Shown: positions 6,373 to 62,897 of the stretch, piece by piece
Numbering within the stretch: the stretch's first letter is position 1
How the letters are laid out: each line of letters opens with the position of its first letter
Sequence record: PZ445448.1
Length of the DNA: 64,000 bases
Source: a phage
Direction: 5' to 3' (one strand)
Position numbers and translations under genes: made by a program
Notes under the pieces: model-generated
The model's input: the letters and a program-made list of their open reading frames with translations, nothing else
Database searches by the model: none
What the model was told of the DNA's origin: nothing

Positions 6373-6562
6373 GCTTAAATCTGCATGGAACATCGCTGTG
6401 GGGGACGAGATCCGTATCCCAGGTGGAAAGACCATTATGAAGATATCTCGTATTGAGTACGAAGGTGACCGTGTATTCCACATCTTCGCAGAAGATGGTC
6501 GAGAAATTTATATACAGGCAGGTTCTCACATTTATATCCGTAAGAAAGGGGACGACAAATGA
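6359..6562 (+). CDS. hypothetical small protein
   Basis: ATG after AAGGAGGGTGCAG. Confidence 0.45.
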   Translation: MQMFKLKSAWNIAVGDEIRIPGGKTIMKISRIEYEGDRVFHIFAEDGREIYIQAGSHIYIRKKGDDK

Positions 6563-6888
6563 CAGAGATCATCATTTCAACTGCAGGGTATGTGTTCCTG
6601 ACAATCATTGCACTGACTATTTTGGTGACAGTGTATGGGTTTGTTATCCTTCCTATCCTTGAGACATTTAGTTTGTGTCGGTGTTGGAGAAAAGCTTACG
6701 GTCCACAACCATGGAAGGACTGGCCCCACCTGGTGCGCTTAGCGTTCTCTTATGCTTACGATCACTCCAGTAGTGCATGCATAACCGGATACCACGCCCA
6801 CAACTGGAGCTGGGAAGGATTGAGGAAATGGAATGTTACAAAGACCATACCTCTACGCATGTACAAACCTAAAAACAAAGACAGCTGA
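6559..6888 (+). CDS. hypothetical membrane protein
   Basis: N-terminal hydrophobic stretch; ATGA overlap. Confidence 0.45.
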   Translation: MTEIIISTAGYVFLTIIALTILVTVYGFVILPILETFSLCRCWRKAYGPQPWKDWPHLVRLAFSYAYDHSSSACITGYHAHNWSWEGLRKWNVTKTIPLRMYKPKNKDS

Positions 6889-6889
6889 T

Positions 6890-7480
6890 ACTTGAAAATT
6901 CCTGGCATATCAAGTGTAAGGGGGATTTCTAAAATGGATTTCCTCCTTTTGATATTTCACCGGGCTGGATATTTTAAAATTCTTAGAAAATCAGAAAATG
7001 GATCGAAAACTAAAATGGATTTTTCAGAGTAGGCGCGACAAGCTGAATAACTCATCCTATCGTTTGCACCATATTCCAGGCCACCATTATAGATTTCCCA
7101 CACATGCTAACCTCCCTCTACTAGAACTTCCTCCACTTGCCCTTAACCTTCTATGGTAACAATCTAACCACTATCTTGAAGTTGCGGTGCAGCTTTCCAA
7201 GTACTCGATCTACTTTTCATTTCATGGCTTGGATTTTCTGAAAATTTTTCTCGATAAATTTCTCAGTACTCGATCTGTTTTTCGTTTTCTGAATCGGATT
7301 TTCTGGAAATCGTTCCGGATCTCGACCTGAAATTTTTGGGGACGAAATCGATTTTTCGTTTTCAGAAATGGATTTTTAAAATTTCTATATGGGAATATTT
7401 TATGGGATACTGTTTTATAGGAAATTGTTACGGAGGGTAATTAGCATGCTAATTAAATTTATTAAATGCGAGGAGTTCTC
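6890..7480. repeat. gene-free AT-rich region with GGATTTT(C) repeats and duplicated AGTACTCGATCT
   Basis: at least 6 copies of (A)TGGATTTT and two copies of CAGTACTCGATCT; no ORF with SD. Confidence 0.5.
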
Positions 7481-7524
7481 ATTTAGAATTTTGAATGATA
7501 ATCATTCTCGTTTGCAGAATAACG

Positions 7525-7549
7525 GGCAGGCCCGGTGATTGTCTCCCCC
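7525..7549 (+). repeat. 25-bp core GGCAGGCCCGGTGATTGTCTCCCCC inside a longer hairpin; inverted partner at 17149-17173
   Basis: 24/25 identity to the reverse complement of 17149-17173. Confidence 0.6.
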
Positions 7550-7949
7550 GTCACCGGTGCCTGCCGTCCTTTCGATAGGTATATTGTGCCACCTGGCGGG
7601 GCCGCTGTCAACACTTTTCAAAAAATTTTTCTAACCTGATGCGCTAACCGCTGCAACCTGGCGGGGCCAGCCTGGCAGGACCTAACTGACCAGGTAGGAG
7701 AGAATGAAGGCTTGTAAACCTGGTGGGCCTATGCTATAGGACAGGTAACAATTGAAGAGGAGGTACAAAAATGAAAGGTAATGTGATCCCCTGGAAAATG
7801 TAGCTATTAATGACGCTGAGGCTATCGCCCTGGTTGAAAAGGCCATGGCGGGAGCGTTGGAACATAAAGAAGAGTACGAAAAAATGATGGTTAACCTGGT
7901 AGGGCGGCGGCAGGTGGATTCTATCATAAAAAATAATTTAAAATAATTG

Positions 7950-7977
7950 TTGACAACCGGGGGAGTCCTGCTATTCT
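7950..7977 (+). promoter_or_regulatory. sigma70-like promoter, first of the cassette array
   Basis: TTGACA and TATTCT 16 nt apart, followed by strong SD and ATG at 8030. Confidence 0.45.
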
Positions 7978-8029
7978 TACCCTACAAGGTGAACAACACC
8001 GCACTAACTAGTAAAGAGGATAAAAAATC

Positions 8030-8227
8030 ATGAACGCATACGGAATCAAAGTACGTCGCAACACTCGCCAGGTGGTCACCGATCAAGTGGTTTGCCTGGT
8101 GGATGTAACCATCAACAACGGGCAAGGCCTTTATAAATTTCGTCGCGGTCATAGCTATACCCTGCAACAGCTTAATCGTTGCGCCCTGACAAAAGGTCAG
8201 ATCAATCACTGGTTTAATAAAAAATAA
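8030..8227 (+). CDS. hypothetical small basic protein
   Basis: AAGAGGATAAAAAATC-ATG. Confidence 0.55.
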   Translation: MNAYGIKVRRNTRQVVTDQVVCLVDVTINNGQGLYKFRRGHSYTLQQLNRCALTKGQINHWFNKK

Positions 8228-9257: not shown

Positions 9258-9377
9258 ATGAGCACTACACGCCAGCACACAAAGGTAACTATTATCGTTT
9301 GCATCATTGGTTATATCCTGGCGCAAATGTTGATGGGTAGCGCCAACGGTGTCGCAAAATTTTTCTTAAACTTTTAA
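9258..9377 (+). CDS. small hydrophobic peptide (39 aa)
   Basis: AAAGGAGG SD 7 nt before ATG; single predicted TM helix; below ORF-track size cutoff. Confidence 0.45.
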   Translation: MSTTRQHTKVTIIVCIIGYILAQMLMGSANGVAKFFLNF

Positions 9378-9455
9378 TTGACAAGCTAACTTAGATCGGT
9401 ATACTAAACACATCAACGGGAAAACTTCCCAGAACACACAAAAGGAGAAAACACC

Positions 9456-9797
9456 ATGACCACTATGACCGCCGCAGAAAAAGCTATTCAGATCGCTGCC
9501 CTGAAAAAACAGATCGCAGACCTTGAGAATAAGATCGATAACTTTGAAATCGACGAGGACAAGTACGACGAAAACTATGATGAATGGTTAGACGAGATCT
9601 ACGGCGAAATTATGATCGGAAACATTTCTTTTCTTCCGTCGCGTATCCTCAAGGAGCTAGATCCTATCGCTTACCGCTGCGGATTTAGCGACTACATCGA
9701 CAGCCTGGATATTGAGGACGATGAAGAATACCAGGAATTACAGACAGAGTTGGAAGAAGCAAAAGAAGAGCTTGCGGAGCTGGAAGAAAACGAGTAA
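9456..9797 (+). CDS. hypothetical acidic coiled-coil protein
   Basis: AAAAGGAGAAAACACC-ATG; promoter and hairpin upstream. Confidence 0.55.
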   Translation: MTTMTAAEKAIQIAALKKQIADLENKIDNFEIDEDKYDENYDEWLDEIYGEIMIGNISFLPSRILKELDPIAYRCGFSDYIDSLDIEDDEEYQELQTELEEAKEELAELEENE

Positions 9798-18489: not shown

Positions 18490-20950
18490 GCTCTTCCTCC
18501 TACCACAAACGGCCCAGCCTGGCAAGTGGAATAATTGACTAGCCATCAATCCCACACACTGTACAAATATACATGGAAAATAACTATTGCATAATTTTTC
18601 ATTGTGTGGTAGCAGGTCCATTTTTACCCGTTTTCTCTCTCAAAATTGCACGTAATGCCGCTATTGCACAAAATTTAACCTGATGCACATCTTCAATATC
18701 TTGTCAACAACTAAAAATCTTTATAAGTCATACACTTACACACTCACAAAAGCGTGTTCTACGTGAAAAATCGAGTATAACTATAGCCGCCAGATCTCAG
18801 AATTTACGTACGCTCACCATTCTATAGTCTGCTAAGTATTTATTCCAACCATGGAATAACGGAATAGTCAATACCTGCATAAAATAATTATTCGTGTAAA
18901 CTGCATAACATAAATCAGCTCAGGTGTCAACATTTTTCGTAAACAGTCCGAAATTGTCACGGTGAGTTATCATAAACAGAGAAATATTTAGTCGTCTAAT
19001 GTTTACTGTACATTACTATACTGACTGGAATCATTAGATGACTAAGAGAAAGATAAGAAATAATTAACAATACAATTATTTTATCTGTAACAATAAGGCA
19101 ACTATGCAAACGAATGGCATGGCGCGACGGAGTCGCGACATAATATAAAAGCAGTAACCATCACCCCCGTGATAGTTTGTCTGCAAACTATTAATCAGAT
19201 CATAGTTGCCTTGTATTTAGTTAATCATGACATAACAAGCAAGGCAACTATAGATCTTCTAATAGTTGCCCTGCTTTTATATTATGTCATAGAAACACCC
19301 GAAGGGGTGACCAAAGGTCACCTGGCATGGCCAGTGAAAGATTATTAACTTGTTAATTGTTAACTTGCTAATTGTTTTCATGCAAACGAATGTCATGGCT
19401 TATCCTATCTGTGTAAACAGTCAAGGTGTAAACTATCCAGGCGTAAACAATCTATACGTGAACAGTGAAACATGAAATAATAACAGTCGTTATTGTGTCG
19501 AAAGTGTATAAGGTGTCATAGTATGTCAGACAAGTTTTTCTCCTCTTTGTCAAGTGCTGCATGAAAAATTTACAAGCTTGTATGGTAGCATTTTTGCTGC
19601 CCTGTTTACATTCAGTTGTGTATGTATAACCCTTGTTGTGTGGGCGTTTAGACGTCTAGACGGTTGGAAGTCCGCAGGTTAATATCTAATCTATTGGCTG
19701 CTAACTATATCCCACACAAATAGTAAGAAATATAATTGTTATGTGCGTAAACAGTAACTCATGTTATCAATCCCTGTATGTATCGCCAGTGGTGCGCATA
19801 ATGGGTATTATGTTAAATTGCCCGTAATGATAACTATTCTCACAATGATAGGTATTCTCATTCACTCCCACAAGATAGGTTGCAAATGTTGTGCCACTGT
19901 GTGAACGGCCTCACCTATTAATTTGCCTCACTGCCTCGATATTTGAGAATTGTTATAAGAATGAGAAGTATTCCCATTTCGTCCGCCTGGCAGCACTCCA
20001 GTCGCTACCGCTCATGACAGGGCAGAACTAGACCCTCTTCAGATATTTCTGGCTGACTCTTCAGGCCTGTGTGGGAAAAGCCAACCTCTCCGGCGGCGGG
20101 GAGGGGTTTGTCAGGAAAATTGCAGGTCAATTAAAAAATTTACGTGGTATATGAAGCGCTCTTCAGGTAAGGCATGTATTATGGGATGAAACCCTCTTCA
20201 GGCAATGATATTTGTGGGTGTGATATTTGCTGGAAAGCCAGATATGACGGGACTCCCGGCGGGGCAGGGGTAGTACAGACAGGGGAAATATGGAGGATGT
20301 AGTTGGGGGAGTTGATCAAACAGGTAGAGTATGGAATATGTTACAAGTATGTTAAATATGGAGGGTGGATATCTGTAGGATTTATGTGTAAAATCAAAGA
20401 CTTAAGTGGTGTTGTGGTATTTTCTATAAATAATTCAAGTTTAATAGGTAATATTTGTCTCTATCCGCTTTGTGTGGTAAACAAATTCAGATGGTGTTGG
20501 TTTACAAGTGTATACATAATATACAAATTAAAGATACAAGAAACCCCCCTCCCCCTTCGGCTACCATTCACCTTTTCCTCTGACTGGTACTTAAACACTT
20601 ATTCAGACTCTTCAGGTTATCACCCATATATCATATGGCAGTGACTGGTGTCCTCCGGCCCCTCTTTCGTCACCCGTCCGCTTCGCCATGCTAATGCCAT
20701 AGCCAATGGTTCGGTTGTTCACCCTGTTCACTCAGGTGTATCTCCATACCCCTTCAAACCGAAGAGAACAGAAAACCCGAATTACTCGGTAAAAGAAAAG
20801 AGAAGAACTTAATTTTATCAGGATAGGCAAGAATGTCAAGGCATGACTGCTCACTAAACAAGCAAACAGTCATGTGTGGGAGGTAAGTGATTGTGGTGGT
20901 AGGAAATTTAGTTGAAAGATGTGTTATAGGTGCTCCCAGCACTTTAGCCG
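18490..20950. repeat. 2.4-kb gene-free repeat-dense region (GTAAACAG iterons, AAGGCAACTAT sites, CTCTTCAGG repeats)
   Basis: no ORF with SD on either strand; multiple short repeat families. Confidence 0.6.
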
Positions 20951-20966
20951 GGTAGCTAATTGTGTG

Positions 20967-21182
20967 TCAGTCCAGTGGTTCATCACCTACTTCACTGAAA
21001 TCAATGTTCATGGTCTCCTCCCAACCATCAATCTCAGCACCAGAGTAGAGATCTTTAGGACTTACTCCCAAAGCATCAGCAACAGAGTCCATATTTAACA
21101 CCTCTGGCAGGTATGATTTATCGAATTCAAGGTAAATCAGGCCACGAGTATTGTCAGCTCCACCAAATATTTCTATCTTCAT
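20967..21182 (-). CDS. hypothetical small acidic protein
   Basis: AGAGGAGATTTC-ATG on minus strand. Confidence 0.45.
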   Translation of the reverse strand: MKIEIFGGADNTRGLIYLEFDKSYLPEVLNMDSVADALGVSPKDLYSGAEIDGWEETMNIDFSEVGDEPLD

Positions 21183-62084: not shown

Positions 62085-62159
62085 GCCCTGTTAGCTTAGT
62101 GGATAAAGCAGCGGCCTTCTAAGCCGTTGACACTGGTTCGAGTCCAGTACGGGGTGCCA
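62085..62159 (+). tRNA. tRNA-Arg (anticodon TCT)
   Basis: cloverleaf folded by hand: acceptor GCCCTGT/ACGGGGT, anticodon loop CTTCTAA, T-loop TTCGAGT, encoded CCA. Confidence 0.75.
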
Positions 62160-62163
62160 AATT

Positions 62164-62250
62164 GGGGAGTTATCCCGTAGAGGTAGCGGTGTAGACTGTA
62201 AATCTATTGTCATTGCGACTCGGGTGGTTCGACTCCACCACTCCCCACCA
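62164..62250 (+). tRNA. tRNA-Tyr (anticodon GTA), long variable arm
   Basis: acceptor GGGGAGT/ACTCCCC, anticodon loop CTGTAAA, T-loop TTCGACT, CCA. Confidence 0.7.
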
Positions 62251-62364
62251 AATTTATATTTTTAGATGCATAAATAATACAGATAATGGCATTGATATTT
62301 ATCGTCGTTTATACTAGTCACTAACTGCTCGAAAATCAGTGTCATTATCAGTATAATTTATAAA

Positions 62365-62455
62365 GGAGGGTAGGGAGCAATGGTGCTCAAGCGGTCTTGA
62401 AAACCGTCCCGTTGAGGATGACTCGATGATGGTTCGATTCCATTACTCTCCGCCA
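62365..62455 (+). tRNA. tRNA-Ser (anticodon TGA), long variable arm
   Basis: acceptor GGAGGGT/ACTCTCC, anticodon loop CTTGAAA, T-loop TTCGATT, CCA. Confidence 0.65.
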
Positions 62456-62553
62456 CATTGTTGACCTTGTAATTAAGCGAAAGCCGGAAGCAGAACCGGA
62501 TTATCAAATGTTACAGTCGTCATCGCCGACTAGCAACATGGTCAACATACTGA

Positions 62554-62650
62554 GCTAGGTAAGCCCTTTGGCAAGGGCGAGGATTTTTAATCCTGAAAAT
62601 AGACGAGGTAGTCGTTGAATACATAGGTGGTTCGATTCCATCACCTAGCA
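62554..62650 (+). ncRNA. 97-nt tRNA-like element with irregular anticodon region
   Basis: perfect 7-bp acceptor GCTAGGT/ACCTAGC, D-arm, T-loop TTCGATT, but about 10-24 nt too long and no clean anticodon stem. Confidence 0.35.
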
Positions 62651-62657
62651 CCTTTTT

Positions 62658-62733
62658 GCTGATGTAGCACAATCGGTAGTGCAATTGATTTGTAATCAAT
62701 AGGTTGTAGGTTCAAGTCCTGCCATCAGCACCA
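62658..62733 (+). tRNA. tRNA-Thr (anticodon TGT)
   Basis: acceptor GCTGATG/CATCAGC, anticodon stem ATTGA/TCAAT loop TTTGTAA, CCA. Confidence 0.8.
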
Positions 62734-62734
62734 A

Positions 62735-62809
62735 GGCCCTGTAGCTGGAAGGTTCAAGCAAGCGACTCATAATCGCCAGACGGTGGTTCAATTCCACCCA
62801 GGGCCACCA
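62735..62809 (+). tRNA. tRNA-Met or Ile2 (anticodon CAT), elongator type
   Basis: acceptor GGCCCTG/CAGGGCC with G1-C72, anticodon loop CTCATAA, CCA. Confidence 0.7.
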
Positions 62810-62820
62810 AATAGTAAATA

Positions 62821-62897
62821 CTCCGCGTAGCTCAGCTTGGTAGAGCGCCTGATTTGGGATCAGGAGGTCGAGTGTTCGAATCACTCCGTGGAGACCA
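62821..62897 (+). tRNA. tRNA-Pro (anticodon TGG)
   Basis: D-arm GCTCAGCTTGGTAGAGC, anticodon stem CCTGA/TCAGG loop TTTGGGA, T-loop TTCGAAT, CCA. Confidence 0.8.

Follow-up and report, generated by a model that had tools for sequence, protein, structure and literature searches.

The DNA analysed here is a window of 64,000 nucleotides (record PZ445448.1) from an rV5-like E. coli myovirus (Vequintavirus), one of a group often put forward for use in phage therapy. Positions 6500-8100 matched 121 phage records, nearly all of them Vequintavirus at 80-97% identity, that is, rV5-like E. coli myoviruses with genomes of 131-143 kb, and MaxTheCat was the top match at 97%. The annotation over this interval in the matched records reads 'hypothetical protein' only, or is blank, and no Pfam or PHROG function was found for the ORFs flanking the array described below. 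Elsewhere, the window encodes the iron-dependent ribonucleotide reductases NrdAB and NrdD as well as a polymerase exonuclease subunit, a DNA ligase and an exonuclease; its tRNAs are found at 62 kb only, and no terminase was found among the ORFs screened (the ten largest and those flanking the array). The genome paper on rV5 reported a primase-helicase and a DNA polymerase, could define no origin and marked a 'non-coding' box (PMC3606486). The literature that we searched for an origin in the rV5 group, for these repeats and for Fur boxes in lytic phages yielded nothing relevant, nor did it hold a published description of this array or control region. From left to right, the features at the locus are as follows.

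6920-7030, plus strand: left motif array, with GATATTT at 6951 and 6968, GAAAAT at 6986 and 6994, (C)TAAAATGGATTT at 6929 and 7010, and GGATTT at 6923
7031-7190, plus strand: variable spacer, C-rich and G-poor, pairwise identity 0.69
7201-7264, plus strand: repeat unit 1 (profile E = 9e-8; repeat families D1 and D2)
7266-7329, plus strand: repeat unit 2 (profile E = 6e-11; identity within Vequintavirus 0.97-0.98)
7340-7405, plus strand: repeat unit 3 (profile E = 4e-8; identity 0.94-0.97)
7406-7490, no strand assigned: AT-rich linker (identity 0.84-0.95), holding a GGAGGG site resembling a ribosome-binding site and the ATG at 7446
7491-7520, plus strand: putative weak promoter around the Fur box (TTGAAT at 7491-7496, 18-nt spacer, CAGAAT at 7515-7520)
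7494-7512, plus strand: predicted Fur box AATGATAATCATTCTCGTT, one mismatch to the palindrome pattern, just right of the array
7525-7565, no strand assigned: GC-rich hairpin, fold z-score -4.5
7583-7611, minus strand: sigma-70-type promoter (TTGACA, 17 nt, CACAAT, with TG before the second hexamer), identity 0.98

The original prediction had singled out 6890-7480 as a gene-free spacer in which GGATTTT recurs at least six times. It is the shorter word, GGATTT, that occurs six times, always on the plus strand (starts at 6923, 6936, 7017, 7231, 7296 and 7370), and the full heptamer is present only four times (7017, 7231, 7296 and 7370). Six copies of GGATTT in 591 bp compare with 0.33 expected from the whole-window rate (P ~1e-6), and with 0.81 (P = 0.0004) or 1.38 (P = 0.002) expected under order-1 and order-2 models of the AT-rich region itself. 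The proposed enrichment analysis thus places the motif above its local AT-rich background, and composition does not account for it. Across the whole window GGATTTT is not over-represented (16 vs 14 expected); it is concentrated in the array region. Similarly, a word had been described as duplicated 64 bp apart; the duplication is real for the 12-mer AGTACTCGATCT, at 7200 and 7265 and hence 65 bp apart, and the 13-mer as first given occurs once. This 12-mer opens a direct repeat present in three copies, at intervals of 65 and 74 bp, and because neither interval is a multiple of 3 we rejected coding repeats. A further repeated 13-mer, CTAAAATGGATTT, is found at 6929 and 7010.

Each unit follows a common plan, namely a (G)TACTCGATC box, a T-rich run (TTTTTCGTTTTC), an (A)TGGATTTT motif and an A/T tract, which is clearest in units 1 and 2. 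Unit 1 runs from a GTACTCGATCT box through a T-rich run and TTGGATTTTC to the A/T tract GAAAATTTTTC; unit 2 has the GTACTCGATCT box, TTTTTCGTTTTC and CGGATTTTC; unit 3 begins with the degenerate box GACGAAATCGA and continues with TTTTTCGTTTTC and ATGGATTTTT. The units are 64-66 bp long here, and the repeats across the subfamily measure 65-75 bp. The short motifs of the left array are GATATTT and AAATGGATTT, the former over-represented in the window as a whole (30 vs 12.6 expected). The DNA is also easily melted: 7367-7466 is one of the four 100-bp segments with the least stable duplex in the window, and the array region is among the five least stable segments of 200-300 bp and has the highest plus-strand T content in the window. 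The segment 7208-7507 ranks fifth for low duplex stability among 300-bp segments (z = 3.2) and is not the window minimum.

Two elements of the original description did not survive closer inspection. The interval was said to lack any ORF preceded by a ribosome-binding site, yet GGAGGG, at a distance of 8 nt, precedes the ATG at 7446, which opens an ORF of 30 codons. This ORF was rejected as a gene, since it shows six amino-acid changes and no synonymous change among 12 Vequintavirus genomes, and other genera lack it. The two flanking gene blocks were also said to differ in promoter and leader style, yet TTGACA-type promoters stand on both sides (five scoring at least 10/12 in 0-6.9 kb and ten in 7.9-18.4 kb). 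Several other readings of the interval were discarded. A structured RNA or tRNA-like element had no Rfam match at E ≤1 and fold z-scores of -0.7 and -0.9; a cluster of GATC (Dam) sites was rejected because GATC is not enriched in 6890-7480 (4 vs 3.3 expected) and is missing from the Hena1-like units; and the likeness of GATCTGTTTTTCG to an oriC 13-mer was non-specific, as the window has 56 matches of similar quality. Phased A-tracts or intrinsic curvature gave no helical periodicity above shuffled sequences in any genus. The H-NS high-affinity motif TCGATAAATT at 7251 is exact, but it is single, not significant and not conserved across genera. No similarity to a plasmid origin was found.

To assess conservation, we used the mean pairwise identity in an alignment of 12 Vequintavirus genomes. 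The spacer (7031-7190) reaches 0.69 and the three units (7191-7380) 0.92, with 0.97-0.98 in 30-nt windows over unit 2; the pairwise range across Vequintavirus is 0.92-0.98 for the units and 0.92-0.99 for the units together with the right flank. The core of the left array (6980-7010) and the Fur box with its promoter (7483-7524) both stand at 0.99. For the flanking ORFs the values are 0.80-0.97 at codon positions 1 and 2 and 0.70-0.92 at codon position 3, so that constraint on the non-coding modules equals or exceeds that on the neighbouring proteins. We count these values as evidence of probable purifying selection on the units and the right flank. The spacer drifts in sequence and keeps, within Vequintavirus, its length (159-161 nt) and its C-over-G skew (-0.28 to -0.46). 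This skew is not kept in other genera, and a Rho-loading site in the C-rich spacer was rejected because the composition is kept within Vequintavirus only. The suggestion that the interval is a module junction is borne out in part. Up to about 7540 the window is 100% identical to MaxTheCat and 99.9% identical to ECML-10, and past that point identity to them is just 92-94%; the gene to the left of the array varies by genus; and one Vequintavirus carries an extra gene inserted precisely at 6888/6889.

The comparative analysis of this junction, likewise proposed at the outset, extended the locus well beyond one genus. In other genera, low-stringency BLAST left the array units undetected and found only the Fur box and the GC element, and we therefore read the layout there from the DNA upstream of this anchor. 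The same layout was present in the eight Vequintavirinae lineages examined and in two metagenome contigs, the carriers being Klebsiella Mydovirus, Salmonella and Cronobacter Seunavirus, Cronobacter and Enterobacter Certrevirus, Pectobacterium phage POP18, an Erwinia Hena1-like contig and the two metagenome contigs. The left-array motif types stand in the same order in Mydovirus, Seunavirus, Certrevirus, the Hena1-like contig and POP18. In the phi92-like phage ESCO13 this layout recurs with different, A-rich repeats, and its left array has only the GATATTT pair in common. A profile HMM built from 12 units, for which several of the matched loci lie outside the building set, found three tandem copies on the same strand, no more and no fewer, in the window and in each Vequintavirinae locus (12 Vequintavirus, Mydovirus, Seunavirus L119 and GAP31, Certrevirus CR8 and F1M1E, POP18, the Hena1-like contig and L113). 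The 64-kb window holds no fourth copy, the next match in rank having E = 0.96, and the profile had no hit in the terminal-repeat regions of either KPP-1 or BME3.

The number of units is constant, and their sequence changes from lineage to lineage. The box and the inner motif are, respectively, GTACTCGATCT and TGGATTTT in Vequintavirus, GTTCTCGATCG and ATCGTATTT in Mydovirus, GTACTCGATC or GTTCTCGATCG and again ATCGTATTT in Seunavirus, GGTCTCGATCG and ATCGTATTC in Certrevirus, and GACTTGAGRGG and TTGGATTTT in the Hena1-like contig. Units of the same genome share 0.66 identity (box 0.80) as against 0.56 (box 0.67) between genera, and same-rank units are no closer to each other than different-rank units. 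Thus, the units of one genome evolve in concert. Since this concerted evolution is lineage-specific, it points to one lineage-specific, phage-encoded protein that would read all three sites. By comparison, the Fur box and GATATTT are invariant between genera. A common upstream gene was considered as the source of the binding protein and rejected, the neighbours being unrelated between genera; the minus-strand ORF at 7682-7927 was likewise found not to be homologous to the small minus-strand gene of Mydovirus and Seunavirus.

The Fur box consensus is a 19-bp palindrome, GATAATGATAATCATTATC, with a 7-1-7 core, TGATAATnATTATCA. The box at 7494-7512 matches this core at 13 of the 14 specified positions, and the window holds five matches at up to three mismatches compared with 0.33 expected. 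The palindrome AATGA(G/T)AATCATTCTC(A/G)TTT is found in more than 120 bacterial genomes of several phyla. In the chromosomes sampled, the 20-mer of the Fur box precedes fur (twice) and feoA, as identified by Pfam, and a fourth sampled gene gave a weak solute-binding-protein match below the Pfam curated cut-off. We read this weakly matching protein and several others downstream of the 20-mer, on the basis of sequence, as probable Fe3+ binding proteins, and three long proteins with signal peptides as probable TonB-dependent receptors; Pfam gave no confirmation for the proteins read in these two ways. Such neighbours are those of the classical Fur regulon, which argues that 7494-7512 is, by prediction, a canonical Fur operator. 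The putative promoter around it scores 8/12 against the consensus, below the threshold of our scan, and its hexamers and their spacing are kept across genera. In related phages two to four Fur boxes follow one another, at a distance of 29 bp in ESCO13.

To the right of the Fur box, the hairpin, a perfect one, arises from a 134-bp deletion between two copies of CCGGTG(A/G)TTGTCTCC in this phage alone. The segment missing at 7538/7539 is present in 11 of 11 relatives, where it contributes a second Fur box together with a further possible leftward promoter. The left arm of the hairpin is part of a CGGTGWTTGTCTC element that is conserved across subfamilies and detectable by BLAST in Mydovirus, Seunavirus, Certrevirus and Stephanstirmvirinae. 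The sigma-70-type promoter beyond it faces leftwards, into the hairpin, the Fur box and the repeat units. It is the sole minus-strand promoter-like site of at least 10/12 in 0-20 kb, in a gene block that otherwise runs rightwards only, and minus-strand promoter-like sites stand at the equivalent position in Mydovirus and Hena1-like loci. The first ORF to the right of the region is truncated in this phage, with no obvious harm.

Taken as a whole, the repeats are best explained as belonging to one non-coding control region at about 6920-7660, which would act at the DNA level and of which they make up the left two thirds. The candidate protein-binding array put forward at the outset gains indirect support from the comparative data, in that three unique same-strand units are conserved, non-coding and subject to concerted evolution, and we put the probability that this is a functional cis-acting protein-binding array at about 80%. 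In such an array the three units would be iteron-like sites for one phage-encoded, lineage-specific DNA-binding protein, and the invariant motifs (the Fur box and possibly GATATTT) would be bound by host proteins or by highly conserved phage proteins, with the proteins on the units and those on the invariant motifs forming one nucleoprotein complex.

As to what the array is for, our best guess, and a tentative one, is a replication origin or replication-initiation region. We prefer it because the locus is unique and carries several motifs, with iteron-like repeats, AT-rich DNA of low stability and a leftward promoter, and because no origin is known. In this scheme the three units would be the loading site of an initiator, the AT-rich DNA of low stability would be opened or primed by transcription from the leftward promoter, and the balance between the two convergent promoters would depend on whether Fur is bound. 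Like the iteron origins of lambda (ori), P1 (oriR) and iteron plasmids, the array has direct repeats on the same strand at a unique non-coding locus, adjoining AT-rich low-stability DNA and promoters directed at the repeats, and its repeat sequence co-varies with lineage, as expected for a cognate initiator. Against an origin, no initiator gene could be identified beside the array, and three units of 64-75 bp are unlike the classical iterons of 17-22 bp. Nor does the array region share the DnaA boxes of such origins: it has no consensus box, and the single DnaA-like box with one mismatch (TTTCCCACA, 7094) falls inside the variable spacer. The oriC 13-mer likeness at background level, the A-tracts without helical phasing and a duplex stability that is low yet above the window minimum count against an origin as well. 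The primary origin of T7 and oriF and oriG of T4 offer a second comparison, as there too a promoter fires into an AT-rich, easily unwound segment and the replication enzymes are phage-encoded; however, these transcription-activated origins have no iteron-like repeats, and the leftward promoter here is of the host sigma-70 type and is combined with a Fur operator.

The same parts could instead serve transcription, with the units and the left array as upstream operator or architectural sites, or as an insulator, under a phage regulator, and with the convergent promoters as an iron-responsive switch for the genes from 7773 on or for a leftward non-coding RNA. We consider this possible though somewhat doubtful. 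The distance from the units to the Fur-box promoter downstream is 90-300 bp in every genus, a conserved GC element stands between the convergent promoters, the relatives have their rows of two to four Fur boxes, and the NrdAB and NrdD enzymes, being iron-dependent, would give a rationale for iron sensing. The palindrome at 7494-7512 also sits in the promoter spacer, as in Fur-repressed enterobacterial promoters, although those differ in that the phage box belongs to a virulent phage, precedes no iron gene and is multiplied in relatives. Such a role is harder to reconcile with the unit motifs, which are found at no other promoter in the window where a general early or middle regulator would show many, with the weakness of the Fur-box promoter (8/12, missed by the scan), and with a first downstream ORF that is truncated here without obvious harm. 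A junk origin, in which tandem duplications decay in AT-rich intergenic DNA without function, is highly improbable. It could draw on the gene-free 'wastelands' of rV5-like genomes, for which an annotation guide cites rV5 (PMC8785237), and on the neighbouring spacer, which does drift; but three copies stay in register across at least eight diverged lineages, they are better conserved than third codon positions and the adjoining spacer, and the motif excess survives the local-composition null, so that the comparative data already contradict it.

Two further readings concern the ends of the genome and the movement of DNA. Repeat Region 3 of T5, which is untranslated and well conserved and has nested direct repeats including some of 66 bp, is a candidate injection-stop signal (10.1101/866236), and by analogy host proteins including Fur may hold or pause incoming or packaged DNA at the module. 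We regard this as unlikely. Both regions are about 1 kb of gene-free DNA more conserved than the neighbouring ORFs, with nested direct repeats of tens of bp and Fur boxes, a few kb from a genome end; the T5 region has its Fur-box array at the first-step-transfer shear point; the module of Mydovirus KPP-1 lies about 8.3 kb from a 514-bp direct terminal repeat supported by PhageTerm (PMC9862379); and a second, larger ORF-free region with Fur-like boxes (18,490-21,000) stands about 12 kb to the right of the array in the window. This second region lies between convergent gene blocks and is equivalent to the terminal-repeat region of KPP-1, and it shares with the array module no similarity longer than words of 9-14 nt. 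Yet the T5 region sits inside a 10-kb terminal repeat, whereas the terminal repeat of KPP-1 does not include the module. T5 also has DnaA boxes paired in inverted repeats, of which 6890-7770 here has none, and a LexA box, which the module likewise lacks. The T5 repeats have no sequence similarity to the rV5-type units, and the unit profile has no match in T5-like or terminal-repeat regions. The module, moreover, lies between similar blocks of small genes with sigma-70 promoters on both sides and bounds no distinct early block, and we know of no two-step injection in rV5-like phages. The array was also rejected as a genome terminus: several records begin near the module, yet the KPP-1 repeat, the sole read-supported terminus in the subfamily, is in the other non-coding region. 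In P1 pac the terminase recognises GATC-containing hexamers, and pacL and pacR of SPP1 are comparable. The array could resemble them as a pac-like site at which the small terminase subunit binds repeated boxes, which we hold to be very unlikely. Like those sites it has short repeated boxes at a unique locus, with a GATC core in most genera; GATATTT clusters both here and beside the terminal-repeat boundary region, and PhageTerm assigned headful packaging to one Vequintavirus (PMC13211470). Unlike them, it adjoins neither a terminase gene, being far from any in the window, nor a mapped genome end, the terminal repeat of KPP-1 being 8.3 kb away. GATC is absent from the units of one genus (Hena1-like), and with GATATTT over-represented throughout the window its clusters are weak evidence.

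Whichever of these roles applies, no other non-coding module of the subfamily is as well conserved as this region, which would constitute an undescribed, subfamily-wide cis-acting element and which, with three units and one Fur box, is small enough for clean deletion or swap. Should it prove to be the origin, it would offer a way into the replication of rV5-like phages and a means of engineering them; should it prove to be an iron-responsive switch, a virulent phage would read the iron status of its host through Fur.

The T5 parallel may reach further. In Repeat Region 3 of T5 (AY587007) a perfect LexA box is annotated just as 'palindrome D' and, past the DnaA boxes, a run of Fur boxes is annotated as direct repeats C and palindromes E-I; the shear point of first-step transfer and the 7.9% nick both fall right at this run. 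Fur-like boxes are present in the terminal repeats of KPP-1 and BME3 as well. Thus, with those of T5 and of the array, such boxes recur in the non-coding repeat regions of large virulent enterobacterial phages, and the literature searched held no paper that describes this. That Fur-box arrays combined with lineage-specific direct repeats form a common cis-acting device of rV5/phi92-like and T5-like phages, with Fur as a structural or gating factor, is a rather improbable extension of these likenesses. Were it true, the transaction would be iron-gated replication initiation or pausing of DNA entry, and the T5 injection stop would involve Fur; the Fur-box array at that stop bears on an old open question. 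The 20-mer of the Fur box itself turns up in over 120 unrelated viral contigs, frequently right behind a sigma-70-like promoter.

Within the control region, conservation is widest just 3' of the Fur box (7525-7600), where the sequence reads (G)GCAGGnnCGGTGWTTGTCTC. BLAST searches found this element across both the Vequintavirinae and the Stephanstirmvirinae (compared sequences L003, L005, L026, L257 and L259-L261), and convergent promoter-like sites flank it on either side. Because hairpin pairing in the element, as judged by eye, is not preserved between genera, conservation seems to act at the sequence level.

Within this stretch, a 134-bp segment is missing from our phage alone, at 7538/7539, whereas it is kept in all 11 of the other Vequintavirus genomes compared. 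In these relatives the segment contains a second Fur box together with a possible minus-strand promoter. The deletion falls between two copies of CCGGTG(A/G)TTGTCTCC, and the loss has left behind a perfect 15-pair hairpin. A sharp mosaic breakpoint is also found here, at approximately 7540: from 6200 to about 7547 the sequence is 100% identical to MaxTheCat and 99.9% identical to ECML-10, but to the right of this identity is only 92-94%. Crossovers between phages seem to take place at the conserved control region. One small ORF follows the control region:

7773-7805, small ORF of 61 codons in MaxTheCat, here ending after 10 codons because one nucleotide is lost from a run of C

Either the ORF has become a pseudogene or the loss is a sequencing error in the homopolymer. 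At the other end of the region, a single Vequintavirus, phage 241Ecol014PP, carries an extra 214-codon gene (761-1405 in L133) at the position equivalent to 6888/6889. The insertion falls precisely in the gap that separates the upstream ORF's stop codon from the left motif array, and the inserted gene has no Pfam match. Separating the two conserved arrays is a spacer (7031-7190) whose sequence drifts (0.69 identity); within Vequintavirus its length nevertheless stays at 159-161 nt, and its plus strand keeps a strong bias for C over G. This bias is not preserved in the other genera compared. The spacer could serve to hold the two arrays a set distance apart, or to load Rho onto read-through transcripts.

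Fur boxes also occur well beyond this group of phages. The perfect Fur palindrome AAATGAGAATCATTCTCATTT was found in more than 120 unrelated viral contigs from IMG/VR (L007-L126), often with a sigma-70-like promoter (TTGACA ... TAAAAT) just upstream and sometimes adjoined by triple DnaA boxes (L046, L100). This recurrence suggests that Fur-controlled promoters may be common in phages. In phage T5 (AY587007), Repeat Region 3 (9330-9660), an untranslated candidate injection-stop signal, contains a perfect LexA SOS box, TACTGTATAAATATACAGTA, annotated as 'palindrome D', as well as an array of Fur boxes annotated as direct repeats C and palindromes E-I. The Fur box array coincides with the first-step-transfer shear point and the 7.9% nick. 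Of the boxes in this region, only the DnaA boxes are treated in the published discussion (10.1101/866236).

A second region without ORFs spans 2.5 kb (18490-21000) and is flanked by convergent gene blocks, with plus-strand genes to the left and minus-strand genes to the right. Besides repeated CTCTTCAG words, it contains:

19826-19978, Fur-like boxes
19938-20222, four copies of GATATTT

For the Klebsiella Mydovirus KPP-1, PhageTerm supports a direct terminal repeat of 514 bp (PMC9862379), and this repeat lies in the KPP-1 region that corresponds to 18490-21000. By analogy with KPP-1, the physical ends of our genome are probably located in this region. Elsewhere in the window, seven tRNA genes (Arg, Tyr, Ser, Thr, Met, Pro) are clustered at 62085-62897; the call at 62554-62652 is unusual in having a four-base anticodon.
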